Shown here one piece after another: positions 5,663 through 14,513 of a stretch of 27,721 nt of DNA. This DNA comes from an uncultured Eubacteriales bacterium. GTDB taxonomy: Bacteria; Bacillota; Clostridia; Oscillospirales; Acutalibacteraceae. The translations under genes were made by a program, and so were the position numbers. A model generated the notes under the pieces. That model was given only the letters and a program-made list of their open reading frames with translations. It searched no databases and was not told the origin of the DNA. Each line of letters begins with the position of its first letter. Position 1 is the stretch's first letter. Where the stretch lies: positions 1,726 through 29,446 of the forward strand of contig ONYV01000012.1 in assembly GCA_900322105.1 (NCBI GenBank), read 5' to 3'.

Positions 5663-7285
5663 ATGGCTCAGCTATGTCTTGGCTGTATGCAAAAAAACAA
5701 CGGAGAAAAGATCTGTCCGATCTGCGGATTTAACCGTGATACGGTGCAGAACGCTCCTTTTATGCCTCTTGGTACAGAGCTTCAGGAGGGTAACTATATT
5801 GTAGGAAAAAAACTCAGCAACAACGCTGAGGGCGCAAAGTATATCGGCTACAGCAAAACGATGGGAACGACGGTTGTCATCAGCGAATTTATGCCGGCAG
5901 GCATCTGCGGCCGTGCCAATGGCAAAAAGAAAGTCGTCATCCGTTCGGGCTATGAAGACCAATATCAGCAGCTCAACGAAGAGTTTCTCAGCTACTATCG
6001 GAACATCGCCCGTCAGAGAGAGTTGACTTCCATCGCTCCGATCTTTGATATTTTCAGCGAAAACGGCGTTTCCTATACCGTTTCCGAGTATTACGATTCC
6101 ATTCCCTTTACAGAATATATCGACCGCCGCAGCGGCAGCATTGACTGGAATACGGCTCGTCCGCTGTTTATGCCGCTGATCACCACTCTGTCGGCGCTTC
6201 ACGCTTCGGGCATCGGTCATTATGCGATCTCACCCGAAAATCTTGTCGTCACAAGCTCCGGAAAGCTCCGTCTGACAGATTTTGCGCTCAAGGAGCTTCG
6301 TCAGACAGGCAGCTTCTTCACACCCGAACTGATGGATGGCTGCGCTGCTCCCGAACAGTATAAGGAGATCGGCGTGCTGGATGAAGCAACAGACGTTTAC
6401 GGCTTTACGGCTACTCTGTTCTATGCGCTCACAGGACGTTTGCCTGAAAACAGCAACGAAAGAAAGGCGGACGGCAAGCTCTCTATCCCGACATCCGTAT
6501 TCAAGCGTCTGCCGCCGCATATCGTTTCTGCGCTTTCGGGCGGCTTGCAGGTACAGAAGCTGAACCGTATCGCAACCTTTGAAGAAATGCGTACACAGCT
6601 TTCCTCTGCGCCGACCGTCAAAGCCATCCAGAACGAAGCGAACCGCAGCGCAATCCAGAGTGAAGTTGCCAAAAACTACACGCCGCGCAAAAAAGACGGC
6701 GTTCCCGGTTTTGTATGGGGGATTCTGACAGTGCTGACCTGTCTGCTCATCCTGCTGGGCGTCGGCATTTACTGGATCACCAACAATCCCGATTCCTTCA
6801 ACAGCTTTATCTCAGGCAAACAGGAAGATACCGAAGAGGATTCTATCCCTGCGGATGTCGATCCCGATTTGGTAACGATCCCCGATCTGGTCGGTCAGCG
6901 TTATGACGATCTTGTCGCAAAGATCGGCACAGGCTCTGACTATGTTCTCATCAAAACAGAAGACGAGATCAGCGATAAATACGAGCAGGGTATGATCAAA
7001 TCCCAGAGTCCCGAACCCGGTCTTACCGCAAAAAAAGGCGTGACGATCGTTGTCACCGTCAGCATGGGATCTGCCGAAAGAGAACTTCCCGCGATCGCAG
7101 GTCAGTCTGTCGAAACGGCAGTACGTGCGCTCAATGCACAGGGCTTTGTTGCATCGGGCATCTATGTATCAAGCGATACCGTAGAAGCCGGCAAGGTCAT
7201 TGGCTACACCAGCCATAATGCAGGCGACAAGGAAAGATACGGCTCTACTGTCGTCATCCAGATCAGCACAGGTCCTGAACCGTGA
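5663..7285 (+). CDS. Membrane Hanks-type kinase-fold protein (probable pseudokinase) with N-terminal Cys ribbon, one TM helix and two PASTA domains
   Basis: CLGC...CPICG; kinase subdomain remnants (ISPENL, LTDFA, APEQY, TDVY, LTGRLP); TM FVWGILTVLTCLLILLGVGIYWI; PASTA repeats IPDLVGQ...SQSPEPG...VTVSMG and LPAIAGQ...IQISTG. Confidence 0.85.
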   Translation: MAQLCLGCMQKNNGEKICPICGFNRDTVQNAPFMPLGTELQEGNYIVGKKLSNNAEGAKYIGYSKTMGTTVVISEFMPAGICGRANGKKKVVIRSGYEDQYQQLNEEFLSYYRNIARQRELTSIAPIFDIFSENGVSYTVSEYYDSIPFTEYIDRRSGSIDWNTARPLFMPLITTLSALHASGIGHYAISPENLVVTSSGKLRLTDFALKELRQTGSFFTPELMDGCAAPEQYKEIGVLDEATDVYGFTATLFYALTGRLPENSNERKADGKLSIPTSVFKRLPPHIVSALSGGLQVQKLNRIATFEEMRTQLSSAPTVKAIQNEANRSAIQSEVAKNYTPRKKDGVPGFVWGILTVLTCLLILLGVGIYWITNNPDSFNSFISGKQEDTEEDSIPADVDPDLVTIPDLVGQRYDDLVAKIGTGSDYVLIKTEDEISDKYEQGMIKSQSPEPGLTAKKGVTIVVTVSMGSAERELPAIAGQSVETAVRALNAQGFVASGIYVSSDTVEAGKVIGYTSHNAGDKERYGSTVVIQISTGPEP

Positions 7286-7347
7286 TCGTGCAAAGCAGAT
7301 AAAGCCGCTCACACTGTATGATTTATCACACAGTTTCAAAAAAACAC

Positions 7348-7381
7348 CGCCCTTATTACTGTTCCATCAGCAATAAGGGCG
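7348..7381. terminator. Bidirectional intrinsic terminator between convergent genes
   Basis: CGCCCTTATT (7348-7357) / AATAAGGGCG (7372-7381) perfect 10-bp stem plus inner CTG/CAG, with A-rich and T-rich flanks. Confidence 0.75.
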
Positions 7382-7393
7382 ATTTTATATCTG

Positions 7394-8875
7394 TTATTTC
7401 TTCAGCTCTATGCGGAAGGTGCTTCCTTTTCCAAGCTCACTTTCCACAAGACATTTTCCCTGATGCAGCTGTACGATGCGGCTGACGATCGCCAGTCCAA
7501 GCCCCGAAACGCCTTTTCCACTGCGCTGGCGTGAGGTATAGTACCGCTCAAAGATACGCTCCGCCTCCTCTTTGGAAATACCGTTCCCGTAATCCGTCAC
7601 GTCGATCATGATACGCTCCTTTTCCGTATACAGCGCCACTTTGACAGTCTTACTATCGCCTGTATGACGCACTGCGTTGTCCATCAGGTTGTAGACAGCA
7701 CGCTCTAACAGTCCTGCATCTCCCGAAACAGTGATATCTTTGCCGATCTTTCGCTCAACGTGCAGCCCGTCAGGCTTATAAAGTGTTTCAAACGTATCAG
7801 CGATACGCTCCATCATACTGCTGAGATCTACCGTTTCAAATTCTTTTCTGCCGCCTTCCGTTTGCAGTTCGGAGTATTCCAGTATCTCGTTGACAAGGCT
7901 TGTCAGTCGGTCTGCCTCCTTGATGATGACGGACAAATCAGACTTGCACTGTTCTTCGTCATTCCACGAGATATCCTGTATCATCTCTGCATAGCCTTTG
8001 ATCATCGTCAGCGGCGTTCTCAGATCATGCGAAACGTTCGCTAACAGTTCCATCTGAAAATCCTTTGCCCTGAGCAGTTTTTCGTTGGTGGTATCGAGCG
8101 CGCCGTTCAGTTCGTCCAGTTCCGAACAGAAGCCTTTTTCAAACTCTGTGCGATAGCTGCTCTCTCCTAATTTTTTTGCTTTTTCCCGAAGATGATCGAC
8201 AGGTCTTGCAAAACGTTTTGCGATAAACCACGACAGCACAAACCCGATCAGCACCGACAGCACCGTCACCCACACAAGCTGCATACTGATGATCGCCACC
8301 GAAGGTCCCACTGTGTCTATGGCAGCGCTGACATACAGCACTGCCTTTTCGCTTTGTCCGTAATAGTCGATATAAGCGCCGTAAATATACAGGCTCTCCG
8401 TGCTGTACTCTGCGCGATGTTCTTCCGAACTTCTCAGCGTTGCGAGGAACTCATCATAATGCTGCGGCAGCACACGCAGATTCCCCGGTTTAACCATCAC
8501 GCCATCGGAAAACTGCGGCTTTTCGGGGAGCTGGTCAATATTATCACGAGGTTCCCATTCATCATTTTTACGCATTCTCTTATCAGGCTGATTGAACGCA
8601 TCCGAACTGTAAATGGTTTTGCCGTTCGTATCGGTAATGAATACCAATATATTGTTGTCGTGCGTCAGTTCATCAATCTGTTCGTTGATGTTGCTCTGAT
8701 CGCTGTGAGCAATAATGCGGTCTGCTACCTCTTTGGTGTTGTGTATCAGCATTGCATTATAAAAGCTCTGAAAAAAAACTGTTTGCAGCAGCCACAGTAC
8801 CGAAAAAATAATGGCGGTAAACAGCACAAAATACAGCCACAGTTTTGTTTTGAAGGACTTAGGTCTCGTTTTCAA
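7394..8875 (-). CDS. Sensor histidine kinase (TM-sensor-TM-HAMP-HisKA-HATPase)
   Basis: H-box NVSHDLRTPLT, N-box NLMDNA, G1 DYGNGI, G2 GLGLAI; two hydrophobic segments. Start proposed at TTG 8875 (LKTRPKSFKTKLW) after GAGGGG, overlapping the regulator's 3' end; the ORF-track start at 8974 is less likely. Confidence 0.9.
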   Translation of the reverse strand: MKTRPKSFKTKLWLYFVLFTAIIFSVLWLLQTVFFQSFYNAMLIHNTKEVADRIIAHSDQSNINEQIDELTHDNNILVFITDTNGKTIYSSDAFNQPDKRMRKNDEWEPRDNIDQLPEKPQFSDGVMVKPGNLRVLPQHYDEFLATLRSSEEHRAEYSTESLYIYGAYIDYYGQSEKAVLYVSAAIDTVGPSVAIISMQLVWVTVLSVLIGFVLSWFIAKRFARPVDHLREKAKKLGESSYRTEFEKGFCSELDELNGALDTTNEKLLRAKDFQMELLANVSHDLRTPLTMIKGYAEMIQDISWNDEEQCKSDLSVIIKEADRLTSLVNEILEYSELQTEGGRKEFETVDLSSMMERIADTFETLYKPDGLHVERKIGKDITVSGDAGLLERAVYNLMDNAVRHTGDSKTVKVALYTEKERIMIDVTDYGNGISKEEAERIFERYYTSRQRSGKGVSGLGLAIVSRIVQLHQGKCLVESELGKGSTFRIELKK

Positions 8876-9542
8876 ATTTATATCCCGCCCCTCTGATGGT
8901 ATGGATCGCATCTCTGTATCTGCCCAGCTTATTGCGCAGCAGCTTGATCTGCCAGTCGACCGTTCTGTCGTCACCGAAATAATCGTAACCCCATACCTTA
9001 TCCAGTATCTTATCTCTGGAAAGGACGATCCCTTTGTTTTGCATCAGATATAATAAGATACCGTATTCCTTAGCGGTCAATTCGGTTTTCTGTCCGTCTA
9101 CATAGACCTCATGTCCGAGCGGATCCAGTTCGATACCGCCGCAGACAAGGCGCTGTTCTTTGACAGCAGGACTTCCCTGATGACGGCGGATAATCACTTT
9201 CGCCCTTGCCATCAATTCTTTCGGAGAAAACGGTTTCGTGACATAATCATCTATGCCGACTTCAAATCCGAAGAGCTTGTCATATTCCGTACCGCGCGCC
9301 GAGAGCATCAGCACAGGGATATCCTTACTCTCATGTATCTTTTTACACGCTGTAAATCCGTCCGTATCGGGCATCATCACATCCATGATCACCAGATCAT
9401 AGTCCTTTTCACGACACAGCTCGATCGCCTCTCTTCCGTCAGACGCCTGCGTCACCTCATACCCTTCTCTTTCGGCATACCGCGCGATCAGCCGCACAAT
9501 ATCAGGCTCATCGTCACAAATCAATATCTTTGCCACCATCAT
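8859..9542 (-). CDS. OmpR/PhoB-family response regulator
   Basis: ILICDDE, MDVMMP phospho-acceptor, KPF, winged-helix C-terminus (LTAKEY...VWGYDY...TIRGAGY). AAGGAGG RBS. Confidence 0.95.
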   Translation of the reverse strand: MMVAKILICDDEPDIVRLIARYAEREGYEVTQASDGREAIELCREKDYDLVIMDVMMPDTDGFTACKKIHESKDIPVLMLSARGTEYDKLFGFEVGIDDYVTKPFSPKELMARAKVIIRRHQGSPAVKEQRLVCGGIELDPLGHEVYVDGQKTELTAKEYGILLYLMQNKGIVLSRDKILDKVWGYDYFGDDRTVDWQIKLLRNKLGRYRDAIHTIRGAGYKFENET

Positions 9543-9591
9543 TCCTCCTTCTTTCGGGATAATTCATTGTTTCATTTCGATTTTATGAAGA

Positions 9592-11100
9592 TCATGTGTC
9601 AGCATCATTTGCTTTTGCCTGCTGATAGAATGTGTTCAGCAGTTCCTTTGTCACAGAACCGTGACGGTTGAAGCACACCTTGCCGTCAGGGTCGATCACG
9701 ATCGTCTGCGGCATCGAAGACGTGCCGCCAACGGTCTTCCAGACAAGATCATCCTCCGTATCCACGGCAAACGGTATCGTCCAGCCCTTGTCAGAAAGGA
9801 AAGCGGAGATATCCTCTGTGATGATCGAGCTATGAACAGCGATCACCTCCACATCCTCCCGATGTTCACGGTACAGCGCATCGAACAGCGGCAGTTCCTG
9901 CACACACGGCGTACAGTAGGTACCCCAGAGGTTGATAAACACCACCTTGCCCTTCTGTTCCGAAAGCGTAAAGCGTTTTTGATCGAGTGTGATAACAGAA
10001 AAGTCCGCTAAATACTGCCCCGGCTCATATCCCGTGACGACTGTTTCCGAAACAGCACTGCTTTGCTGATTTGAAAGCTCTGCTTTCGTGTGATCCGCAG
10101 CAGGGTCGATGAAATTGAACCAGATCAGCGCAAATAATAGCAGCGCCAATGCCGCAGCGCCGACACACGTTTTGATTTTCTGCCGTTTTTTTCCACTCTG
10201 CAAAGATCGGTCTGCAAGGTCGCTTTTCGGCGGCAAGAGCGTGATCTTTCCTGCTTTCAGGGAGATCGCATCCTGAGCGCAGAAGTCCATACATTTTCCG
10301 CAGTGGATGCATTCATGGTCGCCGACGTGTCGGATATCCATGCTGCAATGCCGCACACAGTTTCCGCATCCGCTGCAGTGGCTTTTGTCGACCTTTACGC
10401 CAATGAGGGCAAAACGGTTGAAAAGACTATAGATCGCGCCGAGCGGACAAAGAAAACGGCAGAACGCACGATAGCAAAACACACACATCAGTCCGATCAC
10501 CAGCATGATAACGGCTTTTCCCGTAAACAATGCGCCAAGCATTCCATAGAATCCGTTATTCTTGATATTGGAGATCAGAGAAACTGCGCCTTCGAGCGTA
10601 CCCGCAGGACAGATATACTTGCAGAAAGACGGCAGCGGCAGATCGTGCCACAAACCGTACCACAGCGGAACAGCGATCACAAATACGGCAAGTATCACAT
10701 ATTTCAGATAGGACAGCGCCCGTGTCACACGGCTTTTCGGTATCTTGAAAGTCGGGATCTTGTGCAGCAGTTCCTGTATCAATCCCATCGGACAGAGCCA
10801 TCCGCAGATCGTCCTGCCGAAGATCAGACCATACAGCAGCATGATGCCGAACAGATAGAATCCTGCCCTTTTGCCCGATGCGGCAAGGGCATTTTGCAGC
10901 GCTCCGAGCGGACAAGACCCTACTGCTCCCGGACAGGAATAGCAGTTCAGCCCCGGAGTGCAGACGATCTTGGTTTTGCCCGTATAGATCTCACCTTCAA
11001 TAAACCCCCTGAGATGCGCATTAAACAGCAGCGCAGCATACAGTTGTATCAGGCGGCGTTTGAATGACCGCTTTTTTTTGATATCTTTCGATCGTTTCAT
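9592..11100 (-). CDS. Membrane 4Fe-4S polyferredoxin (NapH/FixG/NosR-like CxxxCP motifs) fused to a C-terminal TlpA-like thioredoxin domain
   Basis: CYSCP, CGWLCPMG, CKYICPAG, CRFLCPLG; two ferredoxin motifs CSGCGNC and CIHCGKC; TM helix; then NLWGTYCTPCVQELP...MPQTIVIDPDGKV. Start placed at ATG 11100, just after the upstream stop. Confidence 0.85.
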   Translation of the reverse strand: MKRSKDIKKKRSFKRRLIQLYAALLFNAHLRGFIEGEIYTGKTKIVCTPGLNCYSCPGAVGSCPLGALQNALAASGKRAGFYLFGIMLLYGLIFGRTICGWLCPMGLIQELLHKIPTFKIPKSRVTRALSYLKYVILAVFVIAVPLWYGLWHDLPLPSFCKYICPAGTLEGAVSLISNIKNNGFYGMLGALFTGKAVIMLVIGLMCVFCYRAFCRFLCPLGAIYSLFNRFALIGVKVDKSHCSGCGNCVRHCSMDIRHVGDHECIHCGKCMDFCAQDAISLKAGKITLLPPKSDLADRSLQSGKKRQKIKTCVGAAALALLLFALIWFNFIDPAADHTKAELSNQQSSAVSETVVTGYEPGQYLADFSVITLDQKRFTLSEQKGKVVFINLWGTYCTPCVQELPLFDALYREHREDVEVIAVHSSIITEDISAFLSDKGWTIPFAVDTEDDLVWKTVGGTSSMPQTIVIDPDGKVCFNRHGSVTKELLNTFYQQAKANDADT

Positions 11101-11101
11101 A

Positions 11102-11818
11102 TCATCCCAACCCAATACATTCTGTGCAGATCACGACTGCTTTGTTCAAAACATCCTGAGCGCTGCCGTTCATAATACCCATAACGATCAATACGACCGC
11201 TGTCAGCAGGATGCCCAGCCGCAGTATCATAACACCTTTTCCGGTCTTTCTGTTTTCGGATGTTTGCACCTTATTTTTGAGCGCTGTTTCATCCTGTATC
11301 TTTTGCCTGTCTGAACTTTTGATGATCTCTCTTGCCGCCTCTGTTTCACGCAAAATGCTTTTATCCCGCAGGATAAGACACACCGACAAAGCGCCGATCG
11401 AGATCAGCGTCCACGGCAGGATATGGCAAAGAAGAGTGAAAATCGTCTGCGACAGCCCTTTTGCATCCGCCGCTGCAAAATGCGACGGAATACAGAGATA
11501 GATCAGCACCGGAACCATACACAGTCCGAAGCAGCACCATCCGACCACGTGCAGTGTCCTTTGCACACGGCGTTCTTTCTCTATGAGCGGCGACGGCTCT
11601 TTGATCTTTTTGCAAAGCAGATCGCGCACTGTTTCCACGTCTTGAAAAGGTTTTTCCTTTATGCGGACAGACATCAGGACTGCGGCGACGGTGAGCGCAA
11701 AAGACAGCAATATCAGCGGCAGACAGTGAAACAGTGCGTTTGAAAGCGCCTGCGGCGTATAGATATCCGCCATCGGGTCAGTCTGTTTCAGAGCAAGTCC
11801 CGAACGCAGGATCATCAC
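11102..11818 (-). CDS. Multi-pass membrane protein ending in a CD1871A-like KAxxICxECIGLG motif (start uncertain)
   Basis: About four hydrophobic segments; C-terminus GIMNGSAQDVLNKAVVICTECIGLG. Family recognised from memory. The start may lie at 11873 if the A6 run contains an extra base. Confidence 0.7.
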   Translation of the reverse strand: MMILRSGLALKQTDPMADIYTPQALSNALFHCLPLILLSFALTVAAVLMSVRIKEKPFQDVETVRDLLCKKIKEPSPLIEKERRVQRTLHVVGWCCFGLCMVPVLIYLCIPSHFAAADAKGLSQTIFTLLCHILPWTLISIGALSVCLILRDKSILRETEAAREIIKSSDRQKIQDETALKNKVQTSENRKTGKGVMILRLGILLTAVVLIVMGIMNGSAQDVLNKAVVICTECIGLG

Positions 11819-12003
11819 TAAGTCCGTACACAGCAGCAGCGTGATCGCATTTTTTCAGTATCAGTCTGCACATAACACGATCATCCTGTACGTGACTCCG
11901 CACTGTGTCTTGAGGCAACACCGCACAAAGACCGCCTTGCGGCTTAGCGCCACATCTGCTTGCATATTTTCCGTCATCCTGCACAAAAATCCCTCGACAT
12001 ACG

Positions 12004-13461
12004 TCAGTATGCCTTCGGAATTTCTGTACAATCTGACGAAAAATCGTATTCATCGACACGCGCGCCGATGGTGGCTTCTGCGGCGATCTTTCCTTTGCTG
12101 TCGATATAGTATGTTGTCGGGTATGCCCGAAACGGCAGGATCCATTCCAAATTCTTCGGCGGCGTCAGGTTCAGATAATCACATCCTGCTGCGCTGAGGA
12201 GCGCTCTTGCTTTTGCCAAAGTTTCTTCGTCTGCCGCATCATAACAGATACCGATCAGCTGACAGCCCTTTGCTTCAAGATCCTTTGCTAATTTTGCAAG
12301 TTCGGGCAGCTCATTTTTACACGGTCCGCACCATGTCGCCCAGATATTGACCAGCGTCAGCTTATTCTTTGCAAACAGCTCGGCAACAGAAACCTGAACG
12401 CCGTCAAGATCGGTCGTTTCAAAGGCGCTGACCGTTTTTCCGCTGTTCAGATCAGCCGATGCGCCCGATTCAGGCTCGAAAAATTCAAAGCAGGAAAGCA
12501 TCCCGTCCCTGTTGTTTCTGACAGTCTGATACTCATCATAAAACGATCCCATCGACTTTTGAAGTGTCTGCTCCTGTTCTGCACTGCGGCACTGAACAAA
12601 ATAAAAATCCGTATTTCCCTTGGAATCTGCTTTTGAGAAATACTCGACTTCTCCTGCGCTGTAGTATTCGTTTGTCACAAAATCACGTACTTCCTTGGGA
12701 GAAACGCTGTTGTCCACAATAAAAACACTGCACACCTCTCCGCCAAGTTCTCTCCAATTTTCCCATGCCTCCACAGGCGGCTTTGGCAGATCCTGACCGG
12801 CATAATAGGCTTGTGTCCATGCGTTGACATATTCGGCAAAACTGCTCCACTGCTCTTTTGCAACGGCATAATAGCTCACTTCAAACACCTTGATAGCAGG
12901 ATCGCTCTCCTTGACTGTCTGCGCGCCAAAATTCAGAGAACCCGAAAGCGCCGTGTCAAAAGCATCGTTTTTCGTGAACTTGATGCCGAACTCTTTTGCC
13001 GTCACCGTTCTTGCGCTGTCATCGTCTGTATTGCTTTCCTCAGACTGCGGCGCCATATCCGACAGTATGATCTCCATTTCACCTGCTGTTTTTGGCGCAG
13101 TATATTCTTTTTCATCCTCTGCATAGCCTTCGGGTACTTTGAGAATATGTACTTTATAGTCGCCGTCAGGATAAGCAAAACCTGCCATTCCGTTTTCATC
13201 CGTCTTCTCCACCGTGCATTCGCCGTCCGAACAAAACTGTACCGTTACGCCCTTGACTGCCACTCCTGCCGGGTTTTTGACGACGACACGATATCCTTTC
13301 GTCATAACGGAAGGTTCTGTCATGGAAGTTCCGTCAGCGCCCGAAACTGCCGTATCATTTTTTGCTGCATCCGATGCCGTACCGTCCGTTTTACTGCCGC
13401 ATCCTGCCAGCAAAGCCACACACAACAGCATGGATATCAGCCCGCAAGTCCAACGTTTCAT
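12004..13461 (-). CDS. Lipoprotein with C-terminal TlpA-family thioredoxin domain
   Basis: Lipobox LLAGC; beta-sandwich-like segment (VTVQFCSDGECTVEKTDENG); uncharacterised middle; TLVNIWATWCGPCKNELP...AYPTTYYIDSKG. AAGGAG RBS. Confidence 0.88.
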   Translation of the reverse strand: MKRWTCGLISMLLCVALLAGCGSKTDGTASDAAKNDTAVSGADGTSMTEPSVMTKGYRVVVKNPAGVAVKGVTVQFCSDGECTVEKTDENGMAGFAYPDGDYKVHILKVPEGYAEDEKEYTAPKTAGEMEIILSDMAPQSEESNTDDDSARTVTAKEFGIKFTKNDAFDTALSGSLNFGAQTVKESDPAIKVFEVSYYAVAKEQWSSFAEYVNAWTQAYYAGQDLPKPPVEAWENWRELGGEVCSVFIVDNSVSPKEVRDFVTNEYYSAGEVEYFSKADSKGNTDFYFVQCRSAEQEQTLQKSMGSFYDEYQTVRNNRDGMLSCFEFFEPESGASADLNSGKTVSAFETTDLDGVQVSVAELFAKNKLTLVNIWATWCGPCKNELPELAKLAKDLEAKGCQLIGICYDAADEETLAKARALLSAAGCDYLNLTPPKNLEWILPFRAYPTTYYIDSKGKIAAEATIGARVDEYDFSSDCTEIPKAY

Positions 13462-13504
13462 TGTGTTTCACTCCTTTTGATGATATGAGGAACTCTCTTT
13501 GAAT

Positions 13505-13533
13505 ATCATACCTGTTTTTCTCTTCTCCGTCAA
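13505..13533 (-). promoter_or_regulatory. sigmaA-type promoter of the thiol-redox operon
   Basis: Minus strand TTGACG (13533-13528), 17-nt spacer, TATGAT (13510-13505). Confidence 0.7.
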
Positions 13534-13573
13534 GTGAGCCTGACGGACTTTCCGCAAAAGTCCGCTTACTATC

Positions 13574-13629
13574 AAAAATGCTTGAAAGTGACCTTTCCAT
13601 TGTGGGTAGAAAAGTCACTTTCAAGCATT
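13574..13629 (-). terminator. Long-stem terminator closing the Ter operon
   Basis: Perfect 16-bp inverted repeat AATGCTTGAAAGTGAC (13577-13592) / GTCACTTTCAAGCATT (13614-13629); A5 at 13574-13578 gives the U tract on the minus strand. Confidence 0.7.
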
Positions 13630-13640
13630 CACCATGATAT

Positions 13641-13664
13641 TTTTATATACTGTTTTATATACTG
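13641..13664. repeat. Exact 12-bp tandem duplication
   Basis: TTTTATATACTG at 13641-13652 and 13653-13664. Confidence 0.9.
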
Positions 13665-13715
13665 CTTAACTGTCACTGAATGGTTTGTCTGACATAACTT
13701 CGTTCTTCGCCTGTA

Positions 13716-14513
13716 CTATATAATAGGTATTTTTCTTGAGAGAATGCGGCATATTTCATCCGAAAAAAAGCCACTGACAGCATATCCCTGTTTGTTCTGC
13801 GGCATATAACCCGAAAGTGCGTCAGGATAGATCGAAATATCCGTTTCCTGCAGCATACTCAGATCAAAGCTGCTGTCCCCTGATGAGATCGTCCTGATAT
13901 CGCCCGTACCGACATTTTCTTCCCGAAGAAAAGACAAAAAGCGTTTCACTGCCGTCCCTTTAGACAGGATCGCAGGGAAGCAGTGCAGCTTGCTGCCGCT
14001 GTAAAAGACTTGAATGCCGTGCGGCGCAAAGGTCTTTTCTAAGTATTGAAAAAATGCAGGATCGTTTTCAGTTCGGGCGTATACCATATAAGTATCGTTT
14101 CGGTGAAGATGTTCCCTGCCTAAATGCTCCTGCATCACTTCATAGACCTTTTCTAAATGCGCTGCGGCAGGTTCGATCATTTTAAGCGTATCCCGTGTCC
14201 ACTGTTCGTTTTCTTCTCCGTTTTTCAGCAGCACAGCGCCGTTTGCGATCAGCGCATAAGAGTAAGACAGCTTTTCACGCAGCAGAAAGATCCGCTCATA
14301 CTGTTCACGATTTCTCGTGGTCAGCGGTACAAACAAATGTCCCTGACGTTCCGAAAAGCGCCGCAGGAATTGCAGCGTTAATTCTGTCATATAGCTTTGT
14401 TCCCTGCCCTGATAGTATTCTGCAAGGAGCTTTGGGGACGGGATCTCATGACGGTGTGAAAAGATGAGTGTATTGTCAAGATCGGTAAACCAGATGTTCA
14501 AGTTCTTCATCAT
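13716..14513 (-). CDS. HAD-superfamily phosphatase (Ter-associated type)
   Basis: FTDLDNTL (DxDxT), TTR, SKGTA, GDSSFDLSML. ATGA overlap with the upstream gene. Confidence 0.88.
   Translation of the reverse strand: MMKNLNIWFTDLDNTLIFSHRHEIPSPKLLAEYYQGREQSYMTELTLQFLRRFSERQGHLFVPLTTRNREQYERIFLLREKLSYSYALIANGAVLLKNGEENEQWTRDTLKMIEPAAAHLEKVYEVMQEHLGREHLHRNDTYMVYARTENDPAFFQYLEKTFAPHGIQVFYSGSKLHCFPAILSKGTAVKRFLSFLREENVGTGDIRTISSGDSSFDLSMLQETDISIYPDALSGYMPQNKQGYAVSGFFSDEICRILSRKIPII

Follow-up and report, generated by a model that had tools for sequence, protein, structure and literature searches.

A putative envelope thiol-reducing operon of thioredoxins, a CXXC-tail protein and a NapH-like polyferredoxin, with a two-component system, in an uncultured Eubacteriales bacterium

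We analysed a 27,721-nucleotide (nt) stretch of contig ONYV01000012.1 of an uncultured rumen Eubacteriales bacterium (assembly GCA_900322105.1), here called the window, and within it a cluster of five genes on the minus strand (7394-13461). The first three, g1 to g3, encode a lipoprotein with a TlpA-type thioredoxin domain, a membrane protein with a CXXC tail and a NapH-like polyferredoxin fused to a second thioredoxin; g4 and g5 encode a response regulator and a sensor histidine kinase. We put at about even the prospects of the reading in which genes 1-3 form an extracytoplasmic thiol-reducing module and genes 4-5 a co-transcribed, lineage-specific two-component system, all in one transcription unit. 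To our knowledge, exported thioredoxin-fold reductases (TlpA, ResA, CcmG, Etrx) of all studied bacteria receive electrons through CcdA/DsbD-type cysteine relays, and an iron-sulfur-based module would offer a concrete answer to how envelope thiols are reduced in Clostridia without CcdA/DsbD. About one fifth of the Clostridia genomes in the sample carry the module, and thousands of its proteins come from gut and rumen metagenomes. The copy described here is a good test case, with two thioredoxin clients and its own regulator in a compact operon and no competing CcdA or redoxin genes in the assembly. The features are as follows, in the direction of transcription.

13580-13626, minus strand: intrinsic terminator of the upstream gene, a 20-pair stem followed by ATTTTTGAT; sets the 5' boundary of the operon.
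13505-13533, minus strand: sigma-70-type promoter, TTGACG, 17 nt, TATGAT (10 of 12 matches).
12004-13461, minus strand: g1, lipoprotein of 485 amino acids (aa) with a TlpA-type thioredoxin; lipobox LLAGC; AhpC-TSA 58.7 bits, Redoxin 50.9 bits.
11819-12003, minus strand: spacer of 185 nt between g1 and g2, partly a relic of the g2 5' end.
11102-11818, minus strand: g2, 238-aa membrane protein with four transmembrane (TM) helices; NF040920 41.7 bits (cut-off 32); no Pfam family.
9592-11115, minus strand: g3, 507-aa NapH-like polyferredoxin fused to a thioredoxin; Fer4_5 56.7 bits, Fer4_7 34.7 bits, Redoxin 62.8 bits.
8859-9542, minus strand: g4, OmpR/PhoB-type response regulator; Response_reg 112.8 bits, Trans_reg_C 88.6 bits.
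7394-8974, minus strand: g5, sensor histidine kinase; HisKA 65.9 bits, HATPase_c 95.3 bits.
7346-7383, minus strand: intrinsic terminator, 3' boundary of the operon, a 16-pair stem and a T7 run, GTTTTTTTGA, 11 nt past the g5 stop.

The list of open reading frames (ORFs) places the five genes head to tail in one direction, and the original prediction had read these ORFs and their domains correctly. Its single promoter was recovered as the top-scoring promoter-like site of a region of about 7 kb, with the upstream terminator directly before it; the g1 ribosome-binding site AAGGAG lies at 13471-13476, 9 nt 5' of the g1 ATG. The junction of g2 and g3 reads TGAtATG, so that either 1 nt separates the g2 stop from ATG 11100, the likely start of g3, or the genes overlap by 14 nt with TTG 11115 as start. 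The 49 nt between g3 and g4 hold only an AGGAGG ribosome-binding site. The g4/g5 overlap ranges from 17 to 116 nt with the choice of the g5 start codon, the ORF opening at GTG 8974 and ATG 8911 or TTG 8875 being the likelier starts; with any of them g5 overlaps the g4 end. We found no convincing promoter or terminator between the genes, as had been claimed, and the sole weak link is the g1/g2 spacer, in which we likewise detected no Rfam match and no unusual RNA structure (fold z = -0.5). An Rfam search of 7200-13800 returned no family at E <= 0.1, and terminator-like matches inside g1, g2 and g3, with short stems and poor T runs, were taken as chance. Because of the flanking terminators, the one good promoter, the coupled or overlapping g2/g3 and g4/g5 pairs and the short g3/g4 gap, we predict with considerable confidence that the five genes are a single transcription unit. 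The order TlpA-CXXC-polyferredoxin-regulator-kinase was found again in two distant Clostridia families (survey loci L036 and L037) and the order CXXC-polyferredoxin-regulator-kinase in a 70%-identical rumen metagenome-assembled genome (MAG; L118).

Two smaller signals lie at the edges of the operon. Between the upstream terminator and the -35 box, the minus strand carries a second short hairpin, GCGGACTTT...AAAGTCCGT (13543-13565), which may belong to the terminator region before it or be a candidate binding site of a regulator. The terminator at 7346-7383 faces the end of a convergent plus-strand PASTA-domain gene (5663-7285) and, since its flanks are A-/T-rich on both sides, it may end both transcripts.

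The core of g3 (10216-11115) comprises four TM helices, three CX3CP motifs, one C-x5-C-x2-C-x6-CP loop and a 2x[4Fe-4S] domain; it is followed by a fifth TM helix and a ResA/TlpA domain (9613-10026) with the active site YCTPC, predicted to face outward. Fer4_5 (PF12801) matched two stretches of the protein (cut-off 22) and Fer4_7 also exceeded its cut-off of 27, and two TM-CX3CP units precede two CX2CX2CX3C ferredoxin motifs with invariant cysteines, as in the NapH-like superfamily. Scores for NapH/MauN (TIGR02163, 76.4 versus 213 bits) and NapH (NF007013, 60.9 versus 234 bits) stayed below the cut-offs, and by its sequence g3 classifies as NapH-like, not as NapH. All 18 core cysteines were invariant in 69 and in 82 polyferredoxin sequences, namely C52, C58, C61 and C68 of the loop, the CX3CP pairs C104/C108, C165/C169 and C219/C223, and eight ferredoxin cysteines. 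Hydropathy and the positive-inside rule predict the N-terminus inside, TM1, the four-cysteine loop outside, TM2, the first CX3CP inside, TM3, the second CX3CP outside, TM4, the third CX3CP and the ferredoxin domain inside, TM5 and the thioredoxin outside, a predicted topology that fits a relay across the membrane. In the AlphaFold2 model of g3 (predicted local distance difference test, pLDDT, 87.2; predicted template modelling score, pTM, 0.82) the thioredoxin domain was closest to 4evm, a pneumococcal Etrx-type protein (Z 19.5), and to ResA 2f9s (Z 19.1; root-mean-square deviation 2.2 over 137 residues). Foldseek matched the full model to thioredoxins only; the core folded alone (pLDDT 81) had no Foldseek match at E <= 0.001, and a profile search of Protein Data Bank sequences with the core hit its ferredoxin part only. 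Elsewhere in the same genome a second Fer4_5 (NapH-like) ORF, an open frame of 249 aa, lies near a contig end (G000 contig C13, about 240-581; L144/L145).

The g2 protein ends in a CD1871A module, formed by its last 37 residues (202-238 of 238; 11105-11215) and consisting of a TM helix and then the CXXC tail; the NF040920 match reached 44.2 bits in the genome search. The C-terminus, ...VVICTECIGLG (ending ...KAVVICTECIGLG), agrees with the family in that its very end matches the 38-position model and closes with C-x-E-C-(I/V)-G-(I/L)-G, and the tail aligns with those of 73 family members. It also agrees in gene context, g2 being directly upstream of, and coupled to, the gene of a NapH-like 4Fe-4S protein. 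The positive-inside rule places the charged loops of g2 (11 and 12 Lys/Arg) inside and the CXXC tail outside, and the same sidedness is predicted for 61 short family members, whose N-terminal flank has a net charge of +2.5 and the tail of +0.2. In contrast to typical NF040920 members, which measure 42-60 aa, g2 carries a multi-TM N-terminal extension of about 195 aa, common to rumen and gut relatives, and the subtype motif NG(S/G)..DVL.KA..ICTECIGLG. The 5' end of the gene is irregular. In-frame stops (TGA-TAC-TGA, 11863-11855) precede g2, its homologues align up to 11848, immediately past the stop, and two alignments, both weak, continue across the stops into an upstream 56-aa ORF. Because the alignments reach 11848 and beyond the stops, we regard the spacer as at least partly a relic of the g2 5' end. 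The protein is without the first TM helix of its homologues, and their Lys-rich N-terminal segment also has no intact counterpart. Gene decay, a mistake in the assembly or an unusual start could explain the truncation. Both gap ORFs, of 93 and 56 aa, were rejected as independent genes, the latter (11861-12031) being in the g2 frame with two stops between.

The g1 protein opens with a lipoprotein signal (MKRW...LLAGC) and continues with an Ig/prealbumin-like domain (about residues 55-135), a middle part without assignment and a C-terminal thioredoxin with the active site WCGPC; its AhpC-TSA and Redoxin scores both exceed the Pfam cut-offs, as do those of the g3 thioredoxin domain. With these domains, a CXXC active site and a lipobox in g1 or a TM anchor in g3, the two proteins have the marks of TlpA/ResA/DsbE oxidoreductases, at scores below those of the named NCBIfam equivalogs (g1, DsbE 53 versus 123 and TlpA 53 versus 230 bits; g3, ResA 97 versus 170 and TlpA 53 versus 230 bits). 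The Ig/prealbumin-like domain recurs beside the module in seven other loci (L092, L095, L111, L112, L113, L120 and L127), either as small separate genes or fused to TlpA, and some polyferredoxin-thioredoxin fusions carry SpaA, Big_1 or CarboxypepD_reg domains. All these domains may be spacers that extend the thioredoxin through the cell wall.

The survey of the module covered 400 Clostridia genomes and 14 control genomes searched with NF040920; about 12 kb were fetched round every match and the neighbours labelled with profiles built from the window proteins, giving 73 loci. A second set of 21 closer relatives (50-70% identity), nearly all of them rumen or gut Clostridia MAGs, brought the total to 94. 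Matches occurred in 74 of the 400 Clostridia genomes and in none of the controls. The polyferredoxin was the next same-strand gene after the CXXC gene in 70 of the 73 loci, and a TlpA gene or domain was adjacent in 59 (same strand, at most two genes upstream or three downstream), being upstream in 30 and downstream or fused in 28. The expectation of related neighbourhoods in other Clostridia was thus borne out. Since upstream and downstream or fused TlpA never occurred together in the 73 loci, the two thioredoxins of the window operon are unusual for the sample. Most of the closer relatives (14/21) have a long CXXC protein and, directly after it, a polyferredoxin-thioredoxin fusion, and the fusion architecture is present in more than 7,900 database proteins, which their sources name at best "redoxin family protein" or "polyferredoxin/peroxiredoxin" and some of which carry an SCO1/SenC domain (PF02630). 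The CXXC and polyferredoxin genes were fused in none of the 94 loci, and that they are coupled yet never fused fits the opposite sidedness predicted for the g2 C-terminus and the g3 N-terminus. A 712-aa frame with a weak tail match (G027) was rejected as such a fusion, having no polyferredoxin match. Our literature search brought up no functional assignment for the CD1871A family or for this module, and RefSeq, which labels one such locus TlpA disulfide reductase family / CD1871A family / 4Fe-4S binding protein, assigns none either, in agreement with what had been supposed. Literature searches on NapH with TlpA and on polyferredoxin with CcdA and thioredoxin yielded nothing relevant. Mentions of CD1871 were set aside as functional evidence, as they concern the neighbouring ATP-binding cassette (ABC) permease and the CTn5 transposon; according to the literature, the namesake gene of Clostridioides difficile 630 lies in the conjugative transposon CTn5, beside an ABC permease.

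No match to DsbD_TM (PF02683) was found in g1-g5, in the window or in the whole 1.78-Mb assembly (79% complete), which agrees with the original prediction that CcdA/DsbD is missing here. Nor did the assembly contain a match to MsrA, and it encodes no Redoxin-family domain apart from the two in this operon. Across the sample DsbD_TM was present in 179 of 400 Clostridia genomes, leaving about half without it, and it was rarer in genomes with the module (19/74, 26%) than in the others (160/325, 49%), an odds ratio of 0.36 with a naive Fisher p of 2.6e-4 that ignores the kinship of the genomes. Genomes with the full TlpA-CXXC-polyferredoxin set had it in 12 of 57 cases (21%), those with a module and no adjacent TlpA in 7 of 14, six of them from one genus. 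The proposed anti-correlation with ccdA/dsbD therefore holds in its sign and falls short of exclusion: the negative association, here without correction for phylogeny, is real but partial, and the two systems can coexist.

In the proposed mechanism, electrons would enter g3 from the cytoplasm through its ferredoxin-like 2x[4Fe-4S] domain, probably from reduced ferredoxin or another low-potential carrier. Transfer through the membrane would run by way of the invariant cysteine motifs, from the two CX3CP motifs at the inner face to the C-x5-C-x2-C-x6-CP loop and the remaining CX3CP at the outer face, motifs that may hold cofactors of the relay. From there electrons would pass to the CXXC at the very end of g2, in its CD1871A module, a disulfide reduction by an iron-sulfur cluster whose chemistry would be similar to that of ferredoxin:thioredoxin reductase or heterodisulfide reductase. 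The g2 dithiol, or the loop cysteines of g3 directly, would keep the g3-fused and the g1 TlpA-type thioredoxins reduced, and these in turn would reduce envelope clients, so that the module would fill the role of CcdA/DsbD in this cell. More tentatively, and with doubt prevailing, the polyferredoxin and the CXXC microprotein could form a transmembrane reductant exporter of a third class, new in mechanism, with iron-sulfur clusters at the CX3CP motifs and the four-cysteine loop spanning the membrane; the low-potential ferredoxin pool of strict anaerobes would then be coupled to the maintenance of envelope thiols directly.

Several points weigh against this reading. DsbD_TM is also present in 19 of the 74 module genomes, and 165 genomes have neither system; moreover, since the assembly is 79% complete, a ccdA gene may have been missed and its absence from the organism is unproven. 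No solved structure resembles the membrane core of g3, the best Z of 2.6 aligning only the ferredoxin subdomain, and iron-sulfur cluster assembly on the outer face would be unusual. The fold by itself is compatible with either direction of electron flow, because some TlpA-fold proteins, such as SdbA (Z 18.0), are oxidases. The long N-terminal part of g2 may be decaying, and the 185-nt g1/g2 gap could hide an internal transcription start or stop. Regulators beside the module in other loci are 30-37% identical to g4 and not orthologous to it, and the kinases beside it align with g5 only over the cytoplasmic catalytic part and never over the sensor loop. In the literature we found no experiment on any family member.

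Further sequence comparisons bear on the two-component system, which the original prediction had coupled to the operon. The pair is of the OmpR/PhoB type, with a receiver and winged-helix regulator and a HisKA and HATPase_c kinase whose sensor loop is flanked by TM helices; this loop, of 147 aa, is predicted to be extracytoplasmic and has no cysteine and no family match. No named equivalog (PhoB, WalR, CopR and others) reached its cut-off with g4 or g5. Of the 73 loci, 14 have a regulator gene close to the module, at most a few genes away, as do about 4 of the 21 closer relatives, some 20% overall. Orthology of the systems across the loci was rejected on account of the low regulator identity and the unshared sensor domains. 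Because the neighbouring pairs are non-orthologous, different two-component systems must have been recruited more than once, none being ancestral to the module, and on this comparison the pair is a lineage-specific add-on outside the conserved module. The predicted coupling is probable for the window operon, with its gene overlap and shared transcription signals, and does not extend to the conserved module. On the ground of that overlap and those shared signals, the system probably autoregulates the operon upon an envelope signal.

Alternatively, genes 1-3 could be a redox module to which the two-component system is a mere neighbour, transcribed by read-through or from a weak promoter of its own and controlling other targets. 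About 80% of the module loci have no such system, the pairs elsewhere differ in descent and in sensor domain as described, and several adjacent pairs have beside them a MacB/FtsX-type ABC transporter, with which such systems are usually associated. Against this, g3 and g4 are separated by no terminator and only by the short gap with its ribosome-binding site, the single strong terminator stands after g5, and the same gene order arose independently in at least four lineages. Thiol-redox operons with a two-component system of their own also have precedents, Bacillus subtilis resABCDE being one of them. Another is the Fusobacterium nucleatum modRS-trx-ccdA-msrAB locus, which is peroxide-induced and ModR-regulated (PMC9239216). 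Both, like the operon described here, bring together in one locus a thioredoxin that is exported, a redox component of the membrane and a regulator/kinase pair of the OmpR type. The present operon differs from both in having no CcdA, MsrAB or ResBC. On balance we judge the mere-neighbour explanation rather unlikely and retain that of a co-transcribed regulatory pair.

In four loci (L039, L041, L052 and L058) the genes downstream of the polyferredoxin encode an ABC ATPase between a MacB/FtsX permease and a second FtsX permease, and then a regulator, with a kinase detected after the regulator in L052 only. This layout is typical of modules for sensing of and resistance to peptide antibiotics. 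In lineages with such peptide-type ABC transporters and two-component systems beside it, the tentative new exporter might have the further role of inactivating disulfide-stabilised antimicrobial peptides.

A second alternative reverses the direction of flow, with the TlpA-like domains forming or isomerising envelope disulfides and the electrons passing through the CXXC tail and the loop cysteines to the iron-sulfur clusters and an acceptor in the cytoplasm; strict anaerobes would thereby have a counterpart of DsbB or VKOR-Trx that works without quinones. The four-TM core with an extra TM helix and an outward thioredoxin-like domain does parallel bacterial VKOR-Trx fusions, TlpA-fold oxidases exist, SdbA among the matches of the g3 thioredoxin domain, and many Clostridia are without DsbB and quinones. 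However, ferredoxin-type clusters have low potentials, and low-potential [4Fe-4S] clusters of this type are poor acceptors of thiol electrons. The active sites of the module TlpA domains are mostly C-x-P-C (CGPC, CSPC, CTPC, CAPC), the form found in Trx, TlpA and ResA, and the CPHC of DsbA does not occur among them; furthermore, the nearest structures are the reductases ResA and Etrx1/2. Because of these active sites, structures and low-potential clusters we favour the reductive direction and consider the oxidative one improbable.

Slightly less probable still is a role in metal handling or metal reduction, like that of the NapH-family cupric reductase CcoG, with the thioredoxins keeping metal-binding cysteines reduced, as TlpA does for those of ScoI and CoxB, and the two-component system sensing metal: a weak match of g3 to CcoG (33 bits), a sub-threshold match of g5 to the heavy-metal sensor family TIGR01386 (169 bits, cut-off 292), the SCO1/SenC domain of some fusion homologues and FetE, the thioredoxin of an iron-uptake system, among the structural matches (Z 17.7) speak for it, but no metal transporter, chaperone or oxidase gene is in the operon or recurs in the 94 loci, the g5 sensor loop has neither cysteine nor a recognisable metal site, and the neighbours differ widely between loci (rhodanese, ABC transporters, housekeeping genes).

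Returning to the thiol-reducing module, its closest relatives by membrane architecture are NapH/MauN, NosR, PceC/RdhC and CcoG, with which g3 shares the four-TM core, the CX3CP motifs and the cytoplasmic 2x[4Fe-4S] domain. According to a published proposal, NapH-like proteins are modular conduits that link electron pools of the cytoplasm or the membrane to a redox partner on the extracytosolic side, such as the flavin mononucleotide (FMN) domains of NosR and PceC, and thioredoxin-like proteins are listed as a parallel acceptor class, the combination of the two being absent from that paper (PMC8238504). In contrast to these systems, the acceptor of g3 would be a TlpA-type thioredoxin and not an FMN-binding domain, NapG or copper; FMN_bind (PF04205) gave no match in g1-g3, which sets them apart from the NosR/PceC type with its ApbE-flavinylated domain (PMC8238504). 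In addition, g3 has a third CX3CP and the invariant four-cysteine outer loop, the CXXC microprotein is an obligatory partner, and no nap, nos or rdh genes lie nearby. Like CcdA/DsbD/ScsB/DipZ, the module is proposed to bring cytoplasmic reducing power to exported thioredoxin-fold proteins, its thioredoxins have the same fold as the TlpA/ResA/CcmG/Etrx clients, with ResA and Etrx1/2 nearest, and its carrier is fused to a thioredoxin domain as in DipZ and DsbD. Unlike CcdA/DsbD, to which it is unrelated in sequence (DsbD_TM matches neither g2 nor g3), the carrier would be iron-sulfur clusters and cysteines, not two membrane cysteines alone, and the electron source probably a ferredoxin-type donor, not thioredoxin. 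As both occur in 26% of the module genomes, they are not strict alternatives. Judged by its sequences, the module is real and widespread, and putatively a new form of NapH-like transmembrane electron transfer. If the reading is true, the family of NapH-like conduits extends from flavin and cytochrome partners to thioredoxin partners. New in this copy are the two thioredoxin clients, the long-form CXXC protein with a decayed 5' end and the co-transcribed, non-orthologous two-component system.

Two lineages in the survey had neighbours of their own. In one genus (g53) six loci (L057, L070, L078, L080, L082 and L086) carry the CXXC-polyferredoxin pair without an adjacent TlpA, set between housekeeping-type genes and a TrkA_C-domain membrane protein (Pfam); by eye the first two of the neighbouring genes are RsgA-like and ribulose-phosphate 3-epimerase-like and the next is aminotransferase-like. 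These six genomes have DsbD_TM, and the seventh module genome of the genus (G343) does not. In L044 (G262) a lipoprotein with two rhodanese domains (7157-7927; Pfam) lies directly downstream of TlpA-CXXC-polyferredoxin, which hints at a sulfur-transfer client in this lineage, and L047 (G100), of the same genus, has a gene that corresponds to it in position and length.

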